A DNA stretch of 6,599 nucleotides from a virus (IMGVR_UViG_2859827302_000009); one strand, 5' to 3'; positions 1,473 through 6,241 are shown, numbered from the stretch's first letter. Notes: generated by a model not told the origin, from the letters alone. Translations and numbers: made by a program.

Positions 1473-1487
1473 GGTAATGACTCCAAC

Positions 1488-1865
1488 TTATTGATAGTGT
1501 TTTATGTTCAGATAATGCCCGATGACCTTGTCATGCAGCTCCACCGATTTTGAGAACGACAGCGACTTCCGTCCCAGCCGTGCCAGGTGCTGCCTCAGAT
1601 TCAGGTTATGCCGCTCAATTCGCTGCGTATATCGCTTGCTGATTACGTGCAGCTTTCCCTTCAGGCGGGATTCATACAGTGGCCAGCCATCCGTCATCCA
1701 TATCACCACGTCAAAGGGTGACAGCAAGCTCATAAGACGCCCCAGCGTCGCCATAGTGCGTTCACCGAATACGTGCGCAACAACCGTCTTCCGGAGCCTG
1801 TCATACGCGTAAAACAGCCAGCGCTGGCGCGATTTAGCCCCGACGTATCCCCACTGTTCGTCCAT
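1488..1865 (-). CDS. insB: IS1 InsB frame (expressed as the InsAB' fusion by -1 frameshift); ORF shown from first Met
   Basis: Translation [44 protein letters not shown]... matches IS1 InsB. The frame continues upstream to the frameshift site. Confidence 0.85.
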
Positions 1866-1909
1866 TTCCGCGCAGACGATGACGTCACTGCCCGGCTGTA
1901 TGCGCGAGG

Positions 1910-2185
1910 TTACCGACTGCGGCCTGAGTTTTTTAAGTGACGTAAAATCGTGTTGAGGCTAACGCCCATAATGCGTGCAGTTGCCCGGCATCCAACGCCA
2001 TTCATGGCCATATCAATAATTTTCTGGTGCGTACCGGGTTGAGAAGCGGTGTAAGTGAACTGCAGTTGCCATGTTTTACGGCAGTGAGAGCAGAGATAGC
2101 GCTGATGTCCGGCAGTGCTTTTGCCGTTACGCACCACCCCGTCAGTAGCTGAACAGGAGGGACAGCTGATAGAAACAGAAGCCAC
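1910..2185 (-). CDS. insA: IS1 InsA (transposition inhibitor / N-terminal part of the InsAB' transposase), 91 aa, GTG start
   Basis: Translation [39 protein letters not shown]... is the canonical IS1 InsA with its zinc-finger CxxC...CxxC motif. The A6C -1 frameshift heptamer (reverse complement of gtttttt) lies at 1928..1934. Confidence 0.9.
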
Positions 2186-2240
2186 TGGAGCACCTCAAAA
2201 ACACCATCATACACTAAATCAGTAAGTTGGCAGCATCACC

Positions 2241-2357
2241 AACACTGGCAATCATTATGATGTTTACCTCCCTCCTGAACTTTTTGCTCAGGCTTATAAG
2301 TTAAAAAATAAGGAAATGAATGCGCAACTCGACTATTTAAATCGTTATGCAATTTAA
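2241..2357 (+). pseudogene. Possible 3' fragment (38 codons to TAA at 2355..2357) of the same disrupted gene as 1308..1472
   Basis: A stop-free frame starts exactly at the IS1 boundary and reads NTGNHYDVYLPPELFAQAYKLKNKEMNAQLDYLNRYAI*. It is on the same strand as the 5' fragment. An open frame of this length can arise by chance in AT-rich DNA, so this is weak. Confidence 0.15.
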
Positions 2358-2649
2358 TGGCAAAGGCATATGCTAAAAACCATTGTTATTAGTCTCACAC
2401 TTTTTTATTGGTAAATATTGTCTCTGTATTGGTAACGCCGCAGATATTCTGTTTAGCCACAGGTGCAATTATCAGCGGCGTACGCGAGGCAGGGGCTAAT
2501 CAGGCATAGTTTGCGTCAAACCTTGCCTGTTTTTGAAGATGTATATAGAAAAACAGGCGTTCAACAAGCCATTTTGCGAACCTGTTCCCGGAAAAAAGTC
2601 ATATTTCTGTCACACTCTTTAGTGATTGATAACAAAAGAGGTGCCAGGA

Positions 2650-2760
2650 ATGAACAAAACGCTAATCGCCGCAGCTGTGGCAGGGATAGTTTTACTCGCT
2701 TCAAACGCTCAGGCACAAACCGTACCGGAAGGCTATCAGCTACAGCAAGTGCTCATGATG
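2650..2760 (+). pseudogene. agp: agp (periplasmic glucose-1-phosphatase) 5' fragment: codons 1..37 only, interrupted by IS911
   Basis: [37 protein letters not shown] matches my recollection of the Agp signal peptide and N-terminus. A Shine-Dalgarno-like aggaa precedes the ATG at 2650. The frame then runs into the IS911 terminal repeat and stops 23 codons later at 2832. The junction is ambiguous within 2759..2762 because of tga microhomology. Confidence 0.8.
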
Positions 2761-2766
2761 AAGTGG

Positions 2767-3606
2767 TCAACAAAAACTGGCCACCGAGTTAGAGTTTTTC
2801 CAGTATCGATTTTCCGATTCGTTTGGGGGTAACCCACCGTTATATTCGTGCGGTCTTAGTGCGCTGTAATATCCAACGATATAGTCCGTTATGGCGTGAG
2901 CTGCCTCGCTGAAGCTTACGTAACCCACCACCGGCATCCATTCGTTCTTCAGACTCCTGAAGAAGCGTTCCATTGGGCTGTTATCCCAGCAGTTTCCGCG
3001 CCGGCTCATACTCTGTCTGATCTGGTATCGCCACAATAACTGCCGGAACTGCCTGCTCGTATAATGACTGCCCTGATCGCTGTGGAACATCACCCCGCCG
3101 GGCTTACCACGGGTTTCCCATGCCATTTCCAGCGCTTTCATGGTGAGCCTGCTGTCCGGCGAGAACGACATGGCCCAGCCCACTGGTTTTCTTGCGAACA
3201 GGTCGAGAACAACGGCGAGGTACGCCCAGCGCTTACCCGTCCAGATACAGGTCACATCACCGCACCACACCTGATTTGGCTCGGTCACGGCGAACTGCCT
3301 TTCAAGGTAGTTAGGGATAGCAACATGTTCATGACCACCACGTTTATACCGGTGAGTCGGCTGCTGACAGCTGACCAGCCCCAGCTCTTTCATGAGCCTG
3401 CCAGCAAGCCAGCGTCCCATCTGGTAGCCTCTCCGGGTTGCCATTGTGGCGATGCTTCTTGCTCCGGCCGAACCATGGCTGATGCCATGTAGCTCAAGTA
3501 CCTGACTGCGTAATACAGCCCGTCTGCCGTCTGGTTTTTCAGGACGGTTTTTCCAGTATCTGTAGCTGCTGCGATGAACCCCGAACACTTGGCAGAGTGT
3601 GACCAC
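2767..3606 (-). CDS. IS911 OrfB (DDE catalytic domain; expressed as the OrfAB transposase by -1 frameshift); ORF shown from first Met
   Basis: Translation contains the IS3-family integrase core ([31 protein letters not shown] ... [10 protein letters not shown] ... [19 protein letters not shown]). Its frame is offset from orfA, consistent with the -1 shift at 3678..3684. Confidence 0.85.
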
Positions 3607-4438: not shown

Positions 4439-4563
4439 GATGCAACATTCCTCGTTTAATGATGATTAATCAGGACGAATACGGATCGTTTGTATTTTGT
4501 GAACACCATAAGCATACGATCGCACAGTGAAATCATCAAGATAAAAGTTCACTTGGAGTGACC
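4439..4563. promoter_or_regulatory. Divergent promoter/operator region of the immunity switch (between the Apl/Cox-like and CI-like genes)
   Basis: A 125-bp AT-rich gap between divergently oriented genes. Contains a perfect 10-bp palindrome TGATTAATCA (4463..4472), an ACGATCG-type palindromic core near 4516..4522, and GTGAA(C/A) motifs at 4499..4504 and 4527..4532 with an inverted copy at 4547..4553. Confidence 0.4.
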
Positions 4564-5133
4564 ATGAATTTGGAGAAAGGCGGACGAGGCGCCATAGAGC
4601 GCATGGTAGAAGCTTATGGATTCAAGACTCGACAGGCGTTGTGCGATCATTTAGGAATCTCTAAAAGTACACTCGCCACACGCTACATGCGTGACTCATT
4701 CCCAGCAGAATGGGTAATCCAGTGCGCCCTTGAAACGGGCACCTCGCTTAATTGGCTCACAACCGGACATGGTTCAAAGCAAACTTCAGGTAATACAAAT
4801 ACTATGGAAGTTGCTAAATATGTATTATCTGATGGTGCCTTGCGTGAAGACGGTTTTTATATTTTTGATAAGGGATTTCTACCCTCTACGTTTAAAAAAC
4901 CTTTTGTCATCACAGATAACAATTCTGAATTTATTTGTGATAAAGAATTTGATGACATACGTGATGGTAAATGGGTAATAAGTATTGATGGCGAAGTAAC
5001 GATCCGTGACATTACTCGTTTACCCGGTGGAAGAATCTTCGTCGAGGGTGGAAACAGAGCCTTCGACTGTAAGATAGAAGACATTGAAATAATTGGTAAA
5101 ATTATAAGTTTAACAGTTAAATATGTTAGATGA
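4564..5133 (+). CDS. Phage CI-type repressor (coliphage 186 CI family: N-terminal CI HTH domain plus C-terminal oligomerisation domain), 189 aa from ATG 4564
   Basis: ggag Shine-Dalgarno 5 nt before ATG 4564 (the ORF track starts at GTG 4558). N-terminal IERMVEAYGFKTRQALCDHLGISKSTLATRYMR...CALETGTSLNWLTTG and C-terminal ITRLPGGRIFVEGGNRAFDCKIEDIEIIG resemble 186 CI as I remember it. Length and position (divergent from apl/cII, same strand as int) fit. Confidence 0.7.
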   Translation: MNLEKGGRGAIERMVEAYGFKTRQALCDHLGISKSTLATRYMRDSFPAEWVIQCALETGTSLNWLTTGHGSKQTSGNTNTMEVAKYVLSDGALREDGFYIFDKGFLPSTFKKPFVITDNNSEFICDKEFDDIRDGKWVISIDGEVTIRDITRLPGGRIFVEGGNRAFDCKIEDIEIIGKIISLTVKYVR

Positions 5134-5148
5134 TACCGGGAGGAAACT

Positions 5149-5352
5149 ATGCTTGGTAAAGTATTTTTTGTGGTTTTATCATGCTCTTTATCATGCTCTT
5201 TGTTATTAAGCCCACTAACTACCTATGCTAAAAATTATCCTTGTTCTGGGAAAAAGGGAGGTGTCTCTCACTGTACCTCCGATGGAAAATTTGTTTGCAA
5301 TGATGGAACTATTAGTAAATCCAAAAAAATCTGTACTAAAAACTCACGATAA
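5149..5352 (+). CDS. Small secreted cysteine-rich basic peptide, 67 aa precursor (predicted Sec signal peptide, mature form about 41 aa with 4 Cys); function unknown
   Basis: Strong Shine-Dalgarno ggagg 7 to 8 nt before ATG 5149, which lies 15 bp after the cI-like stop. The N-terminus [27 protein letters not shown] has the charged, hydrophobic and A-x-A-like cleavage parts of a signal peptide. Mature part is [41 protein letters not shown] do not recognise a homolog. Confidence 0.5.
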
Positions 5353-5528
5353 CTTTTGCTTTTATATCTGCGTCTAAAATAAAAATGAGCCGCAGGTTAA
5401 CCGCAAAAGTTACATGCTCACATAGCAAAAAGAATAGCCAACTTCATTATGGCTTCAGTGAGATGTATGGTCGGGTGATGCTGCCAACTTACTGATTTAG
5501 TGTATGATGGTGTTTTTGAGGTGCTCCA

Positions 5529-5804
5529 GTGGCTTCTGTTTCTATCAGCTGTCCCTCCTGTTCAGCTACTGACGGGGTGGTGCGTAACGGCAAAAGCACT
5601 GCCGGACATCAGCGCTATCTCTGCTCTCACTGCCGTAAAACATGGCAACTGCAGTTCACTTACACCGCTTCTCAACCCGGTACGCACCAGAAAATTATTG
5701 ATATGGCCATGAATGGCGTTGGATGCCGGGCAACTGCACGCATTATGGGCGTTAGCCTCAACACGATTTTACGTCACTTAAAAAACTCAGGCCGCAGTCG
5801 GTAA
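5529..5804 (+). CDS. insA: IS1 InsA, 91 aa, GTG start
   Basis: Protein identical to the copy 1 InsA. The A6C frameshift heptamer A AAA AAC lies at 5780..5786. Confidence 0.9.
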
Positions 5805-5848
5805 CCTCGCGCATACAGCCGGGCAGTGACGTCATCGTCTGCGCGGAA

Positions 5849-6226
5849 ATGGACGAACAGTGGGGATACGTCGGGGCTAAATCGCGCCAGCGCTGGCTGT
5901 TTTACGCGTATGACAGGCTCCGGAAGACGGTTGTTGCGCACGTATTCGGTGAACGCACTATGGCGACGCTGGGGCGTCTTATGAGCTTGCTGTCACCCTT
6001 TGACGTGGTGATATGGATGACGGATGGCTGGCCACTGTATGAATCCCGCCTGAAGGGAAAGCTGCACGTAATCAGCAAGCGATATACGCAGCGAATTGAG
6101 CGGCATAACCTGAATCTGAGGCAGCACCTGGCACGGCTGGGACGGAAGTCGCTGTCGTTCTCAAAATCGGTGGAGCTGCATGACAAAGTCATCGGGCATT
6201 ATCTGAACATAAAACACTATCAATAA
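5849..6226 (+). CDS. insB: IS1 InsB frame (InsAB' transposase by -1 frameshift); ORF shown from first Met
   Basis: Protein identical to the copy 1 InsB ORF. Confidence 0.85.
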
Positions 6227-6241
6227 GTTGGAGTCATTACC

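Follow-up and report, generated by a model that had tools for sequence, protein, structure and literature searches.

Insertion sequences and gene decay between cbpA and a 186-like prophage remnant in a Shigella chromosome

In a stretch of 6599 nt catalogued as viral (IMGVR_UViG_2859827302_000009; hereafter the window, meaning the whole stretch), two copies of the insertion sequence (IS) IS1 lie in inverted orientation and bracket a mosaic segment that joins part of the chromosomal gene agp to the remnant of a 186-like prophage. The locus raises the question of how such a segment came to lie between two IS1 elements, and whether the pair assembled it, carried it in or merely came to flank it. 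An earlier note, made from the sequence alone, had taken the mosaic for the product of IS1-mediated deletions. Comparison with related genomes leads us to a different reading, to which we give a probability of roughly 0.85: the window is an IS-driven decay patch in a Shigella chromosome, the outcome of at least five separate events and not of any single event involving the IS1 pair.

The window was aligned to locus L028 (GCA_002950015.1, CP026828.1, in a Shigella accession block), with which it is identical (100%) across all 6599 bases; the CP026828.1 record is a single 4.64-Mb contig, a chromosome. Among 29 loci from related genomes, this locus is the one that carries all six window junctions, four of IS1 and two of the IS3-family element IS911. 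In a megablast with the whole window, no E. coli complete genome covered at least 80% of it, so the arrangement is absent from the E. coli complete-genome collection. The IS load and the pseudogenes of the window fit a Shigella origin.

The two IS1 copies and the sequence lost beside them

A repeat search returned inverted arms at 1468–2240 and 5474–6246, which were cut back to the terminal inverted repeats of IS1. The resulting elements, copies A and B (Table 1), are both full-length and lie 3233 bp apart in inverted orientation, which confirms the geometry described in the earlier note. They match at 767 of 768 bases, a degree of identity over such a length that cannot be chance. The lone difference, at IS1 position 714 (window 1527 versus 6187), is synonymous (AAG versus AAA, both lysine); the encoded proteins are therefore identical, as had been claimed, and the claim that the copies are identical as DNA stands as near-identity but not in the strict sense. 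Imperfect terminal inverted repeats of about 23 bp (left, GGTGATGCTGCCAACTTACTGAT; right, GGTAATGACTCCAACTTATTGAT) are found at both copies, and the two outer ends of the pair, at 1473 and 6241, are intact right inverted repeats (IRR). InsA is 91 aa long, the A6C frameshift motif lies at IS1 position 305, and the insA and insB' frames are intact in both copies; the Pfam domains are PF03811, PF12759 and PF03400 (Zn_ribbon_InsA, HTH_Tnp_IS1 and DDE_Tnp_IS1). The segment between the copies holds the agp promoter and 5' end, IS911 and the prophage immunity remnant, all three of which had been listed before, together with the 3' end of yccE (2241–2357), which had not been mentioned.

The 9-bp flanks are CAAATTTAT and AACACTGGC at copy A and GTATGGTCG and GAAAAACAG at copy B. 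No flank pair among the four IS1 junctions matches at lengths of 7–11, either directly or as the reverse complement; within 25 nt of the junctions the flanks share no k-mer of more than 7 nt, with the 7-nt match lying away from the ends, and the outer flanks of the pair, CAAATTTAT and GAAAAACAG, are unrelated. As a positive control, the same end definition was applied to every full-length IS1 in the 29 loci, which yielded nine distinct sites with a clean target-site duplication (TSD) of 8–9 bp and four distinct sites without one, both window copies included. Since nine control sites display their duplications, the absence in the window is real and not an error of boundary placement, and the earlier statement that none of the four junctions shares a 9-bp duplication survives both the trimming of the IS ends and the control. 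Copies lacking a TSD are frequent in the lineage, making up roughly one in three of the sampled sites; the two found in relatives accompany far more extensive rearrangements. The window copies are no longer simple insertions, and the missing duplication does not argue against their identity as IS1. The usual causes of missing TSDs are adjacent deletions or recombination between IS copies (PMC11708052).

Alignment to relatives revealed what each copy has replaced. Window positions 1–1472 align to L005 7272–8743 and positions 2241–2757 to L005 9592–10108, at 99.9–100% identity; copy A stands in place of 848 bp of yccE (L005 8744–9591; 849 bp when measured against E. coli yccE), with the 5' and 3' parts of the gene on its two sides in the same orientation. 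Likewise, 4008–5473 align to L017 7727–9192 and 6242–6599 to L017 9955–10312. Here copy B stands in place of 762 bp (L017 9193–9954), comprising the spacer after the ydcA-like gene and nucleotides 1–695 of the integrase gene int, and its flanks are also colinear with the prophage of E. coli ECCWS199. Both target genes are already frameshifted in relatives, yccE into open reading frames (ORFs) of 158 and 278 aa and int into ORFs of 207 and 103 aa. Each IS1 thus sits at a deletion, and to this extent the earlier proposal of IS1-mediated deletions was right; as an account of the mosaic itself it was not, for reasons given in the next section. The most likely cause of both losses is the adjacent-deletion activity of IS1, i.e., intramolecular replicative transposition. 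In an adjacent deletion the IS stays in place, one of its ends is fused to a new target nearby, and the intervening DNA is removed together with one of the 9-bp copies.

The junctions differ in their distribution. By exact-sequence match, the ORF spanning the agp|IS911 junction (2650–2832) occurs in 52 collection blocks and the ORF spanning the junction of IS911 with the truncated prophage gene CII in 207, while the ORF across the junction of yccE with copy A (window 1317–1553) occurs in one contig of the whole collection, CP026828.1. The four IS1 junctions (J1–J4) are found in L028 and in none of the other 28 loci. The IS911 junctions date from further back and recur in relatives; among the genomes compared, CP026828.1 alone has the hybrid IS911 join and the two IS1 events. 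The two IS1 copies are late, independent, strain-private additions, their close and inverted placement is a coincidence of two local events, and neither copy has displaced the segment that they enclose.

Further IS1 insertions were seen in both regions in relatives. In L004 and L006, the stretch from cbpA to agp (about 6042–9773) has taken up three different insertions of IS1 or iso-IS1, each with a TSD of 8–9 bp; two of the three are inverted and bracket yccE. Another IS1 lies inside yccE in L009, and E. coli 30COLEC and NMBU-W12E19 (L001 and L002) have independent IS1 insertions in the same gene. The AT-rich cbpA–yccE–agp stretch looks like an IS1 hotspot. On the prophage side, an IS1 without TSD in L012, L014, L015 and L018 (8146–8913) fuses the prophage tail-sheath gene to the ydcA/int region, with the loss of the entire early and immunity region, which is still present in the window. 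The window yccE also has a nonsense change at codon 18 (CAG to TAG, position 1233), which is the sole difference from L005 over window 1–1472 and the third hit to this gene, besides the lineage-wide frameshift and the deletion at copy A.

The IS911 copy at the mosaic junction

The chromosomal and prophage parts of the segment meet at the element at 2759–4007, which begins and ends with TGAAGTGG...CCACTTCA, contains orfA and orfB, and matches the Pfam families HTH_Tnp_1, rve and rve_3. The name IS911 follows the published end sequences of that element; copies in E. coli records that are 96% identical to it are annotated as ISEc52-like, IS3 family. In the window it joins a truncated chromosomal agp on one side to a truncated prophage CII on the other. 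Its flanks, TGA and AAG, form no 3-bp TSD, as is expected of a recombinant copy. The agp/IS911 boundary (2756–2761) can be placed only to within 3 nt: the agp sequence is ...CATGATGA|GCC and TGAAGTGG opens the IS, so that TGA fits either.

In relatives the two halves of this join belong to two different IS911 copies. Loci L004–L011 have the agp|IS911 junction followed by rutR, putA and putP, with the E. coli map order kept except for a deletion from the 3' end of agp through the rut operon. Loci L017 and L020–L029 have the IS911|CII junction preceded by a truncated dam and a phage replication gene, with the order of the intact prophage kept except for a deletion of about 1.5 kb. One assembly, GCA_002968215.1, holds both IS911 copies in opposite orientations, separated by about 205 kb (L008, reversed, at 461–481 kb; L017, forward, at 668–688 kb). 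Recombination of this pair predicts the order in the window exactly: cbpA (−), yccE (+), truncated agp (+), IS911 (−), truncated CII (−), cI (+), int (+).

The wider gene order agrees with such a join. In L028 and L030 it runs torT to torA, cbpM, cbpA and truncated agp, then truncated int, rcdA, ybjJ, ybjI, ybjH, mdfA, ybjG, deoR and dacC. On the E. coli K-12 map the first series ascends and the second descends, a reversal characteristic of an inversion breakpoint. In the K-12 order the interval between the two IS911 copies holds essential genes, e.g., rpsA, ftsK, msbA and fabA, and deletion of the interval is therefore no option. From the comparison of gene orders, the mosaic is thus most probably the breakpoint of an inversion between two IS911 copies; it is not a product of IS1. 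The attribution to IS1 deletions fails at the point where the agp fragment meets the prophage: this is at IS911, and the junctions on its two sides are those of the two IS911 copies in relatives.

An IS1 with a 9-bp TSD (CACGGTGGC) is nested in the CII-linked IS911 of L021, L022, L027 and L029, at 10327–11094.

From these comparisons we infer the following course. One IS911 copy would have entered agp, with an adjacent deletion toward the rutR side, and a second the CII gene of a 186-like prophage beside rcdA, with an adjacent deletion to dam; both would be older events, shared by many relatives. Homologous recombination between the inverted copies, some 205 kb apart, would have inverted the interval and created the agp–IS911–CII joint at 2759–4007. 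IS1 would have entered the already frameshifted yccE, with the loss of 848 bp alongside, and also the already frameshifted integrase region of the prophage, with the loss of 762 bp, both in this strain only. The inversion and the two IS1 events are listed here without implying a time order, as the data do not rank the three.

Several points weigh against this course of events. The arrangement occurs in a single public assembly. The inversion rests on one breakpoint and on the gene order of sister genomes, the reciprocal rutR–IS911–dam junction lying outside the data read, and the agp-linked and CII-linked IS911 copies differ by sporadic private single-nucleotide polymorphisms only, which leaves the crossover unmappable. 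Among the 29 loci there is also no intermediate, i.e., no IS1 at either window site with an intact 9-bp TSD, so that adjacent deletion, one-step insertion with deletion and recombination between direct IS1 copies are indistinguishable.

Alternative origins of the bracketed segment

Composite transposons with inverted IS1 arms are known (Tn1681), and the pair in the window resembles one in having two full-length inverted copies with intact outer ends and reading frames. Nevertheless, we see next to no chance that the IS1–segment–IS1 unit is, or ever was, a transposon of this type inserted in one piece. Its outer flanks (CAAATTTAT and GAAAAACAG) share no 9-bp duplication; at each IS1 the inside continues the outside (yccE around copy A, the ydcA–int region around copy B); and the inner segment holds IS911 junctions that the lineage inherited locally and long ago. 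Given flanks colinear with local ancestral DNA and the lack of an outer duplication, a composite-transposon insertion was rejected, in agreement with the earlier note, which had argued against a fresh one. An inverted IS pair without a direct TSD is, in addition, a known outcome of replicative transposition, and one intramolecular event of this kind, acting on one IS1, could have produced its inverted partner and flipped the intervening DNA, leaving no direct duplication at either copy. The segment would then have to be inverted with respect to both outer flanks; instead, 2241–2758 are colinear with 1–1472 and 4008–5473 with 6242–6599. The inverted 9-bp repeat that such an event predicts at one inner and one outer junction is also missing, as no such repeat is shared between the flanks, and the losses of 848 and 762 bp would go unexplained. 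On the colinearity of both IS1 flanks we reject the single-event replicative inversion, which is extremely improbable.

How each IS1 came by its deletion is a separate matter. Both losses, 848 and 762 bp, are near the length of IS1 itself (768 bp). Each TSD-less copy might therefore derive from a one-step insertion with deletion, either because the IS1 ends joined targets about one element length apart or because the element was captured at a break. TSD-less IS movements coupled to rearrangement have been proposed for IS5 and IS481 (PMC11708052), and no TSD-bearing intermediate occurs among the compared loci. However, the cases number only two, the other two TSD-less IS1 sites in relatives are tied to far larger rearrangements, strain-private events are expected to lack intermediates in any case, and a classical adjacent deletion fits the data equally well. 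We consider the one-step origin unlikely. The narrower idea that the two sizes are the footprint of IS1 ends attacking targets about one element apart is distinctly unlikely, the agreement in size over two cases being most likely a coincidence; if it were true, TSD-less IS1 copies across IS-rich Shigella genomes should be accompanied by deletions of about 0.8 kb more often than expected. An assembly artefact, whether through collapse or mis-joining of the IS1 repeat or through mis-joining at IS911, would agree with the occurrence of the IS1 junctions and of the agp–IS911–CII join in one public assembly only, and mis-joins classically occur at repeats of such sizes (0.77 and 1.25 kb). Against this, CP026828.1 is a single-contig chromosome of 4.64 Mb, and the same accession block holds CP026832 (L027), for which Shigella dysenteriae 14 ATCC 49346 is given as the strain and PacBio as the sequencing platform (PMC10132075); this neighbouring accession has the IS911|CII junction too. 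The one-base difference between the IS1 copies indicates that they were resolved separately, a mis-join would not give clean losses of 848 and 762 bp in otherwise colinear flanks, and the collapse of a repeat loses copies and would not add two. We give an artefact very little credence.

Other features, outlook and known systems

The features of the window are collected in Table 1. No Rfam family matched the window.

Table 1. Genes, gene fragments and insertion sequences in the 6599-nt window
Position	Strand	Feature	Basis
1–921	−	cbpA, curved DNA-binding protein, DnaJ-like, intact, 306 aa	ORF; annotation in E. coli relatives; Pfam DnaJ and DnaJ_C on the same gene in L030
1182–1472	+	yccE 5' fragment, first 291 nt, CAG to TAG at 1233, ends at the IS1 A junction	Alignment to E. 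coli/Shigella yccE
1473–2240	−	IS1 copy A, 768 bp; IRR at 1473 (outer), left inverted repeat (IRL) at 2240 (inner); insA 1910–2185, insB' open	
2241–2357	+	yccE 3' fragment, last 117 nt including stop, C-terminus ...LDYLNRYAI*	Colinear with the 5' fragment
2358–2758	+	yccE–agp intergenic region and agp 5' end; agp start 2650, first ~109 nt (to 2758, about 36 codons) left	99–100% identity to relatives
2759–4007	−	IS911-type IS3-family element, 1249 bp; orfA 3669–3971 (longer GTG-start ORF 3633–3971), orfB	
4005–4184	−	Truncated 186-type CII gene, 59 of 169 codons, stop from the IS911 end	Pfam Phage_CP76
4217–4438	−	Prophage-switch gene in apl/cro position, 73 aa, intact	ORF; role from position only
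4564–5133	+	186-type CI repressor gene, intact, 189 aa	Pfam Phage_CI_repr and Phage_CI_C; annotated 'phage repressor protein CI'
5149–5352	+	ydcA-family small gene, 67 aa	Pfam YdcA
5474–6241	+	IS1 copy B, 768 bp; IRL at 5474 (inner), IRR at 6241 (outer); insA 5529–5804, A6C motif 5778, insB' open	
6242–6599	+	Prophage tyrosine integrase 3' fragment, nt 696–1053 of 1053; rcdA next in the genome	Pfam Phage_integrase; 100% identity to E. coli prophage integrases

The prophage part follows the order of a 186-like immunity region, CII, apl-like gene, cI, (ydcA) and int, and the CII gene is present at its full length of 169 aa in E. coli prophages. The gene in the apl position has no Pfam hit and is a conserved neighbour in all related prophages. 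This gene, the divergent cI and the switch intergenic region between them (4439–4563) are fully intact, the rest of the prophage having been cut away, and the remnant might still render its host immune to 186-like phages. In the ydcA-family gene, 12 bp are duplicated in tandem at about 5177–5200 (tatcatgctctt twice), within the part for the signal-peptide-like N-terminus. Its product has 67 aa in the window and in several Shigella relatives, and 63 aa in E. coli prophages and in L025.

Because the two IS1 copies are nearly identical over 768 bp in inverted orientation, and because each keeps its ends, insA and the A6C site intact and insB' open, a RecA-mediated inversion of the 3.2-kb segment, and IS1-mediated further deletion or mobilisation, would be possible; the earlier note's expectation that the pair could invert or mobilise the segment is thus reasonable on mechanistic grounds. 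An inversion between the copies would leave the inner junction sequences unchanged and would thus be visible only to reads longer than the IS. As the segment consists of remnants together with an intact cI and apl-like gene, such an inversion would have no obvious consequence. For annotation, only remnants are left of agp and yccE, and of cII and int in the prophage; for users of the genome, the window probably spans one breakpoint of an inverted interval of about 205 kb, and the IS1 pair marks potential sites of rearrangement. Outside annotation the locus is of little importance.

Together, our results place the locus within an already understood type of IS-mediated decay, with no new element, mechanism or function. 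It serves as a worked example of the scrambling of Shigella chromosomes, in which old IS911 copies would act as inversion breakpoints and recent IS1 copies erode dead genes. The likeness to Tn9 (direct arms) and Tn1681 (inverted arms) is one of layout only: two intact IS1 elements surround a few kb, inverted as in Tn1681, whereas the unit in the window was built in place from local DNA, without a duplication and without selectable cargo; it has no second copy anywhere, and its junctions occur in one genome only. The prophage part shares with the immunity region of coliphage 186 and P2-like phages its gene order and the Pfam families Phage_CP76, Phage_CI_repr/Phage_CI_C and Phage_integrase, and with E. 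coli prophages its integration beside rcdA. In contrast to coliphage 186, the window copy is a remnant, with CII cut at codon 59 by IS911 and int lacking its first 695 nt, and the remaining prophage would no longer be adjacent after the inversion.

Both IS1 copies are comparable with IS1 adjacent deletions, first described in the E. coli gal region, in which the element is also kept whole, sequence beside one end is lost, the flanks are colinear and there is no 9-bp duplication; the window losses differ in being small (0.76–0.85 kb) and in lying in genes that were dead beforehand. In Shigella the IS1 and IS3 families have expanded and IS-mediated inversions are frequent: of 114 inversions reconstructed in one survey, 103 fall on Shigella branches (PMC8072062). 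Compared with the documented IS-mediated inversions of Shigella, the present case has one of its two breakpoints in the data, and its crossover within IS911 cannot be mapped. It resembles them in that a single IS911 joins regions that each have their own, inverted IS911 in sister genomes, and in that the gene order reverses at this element.

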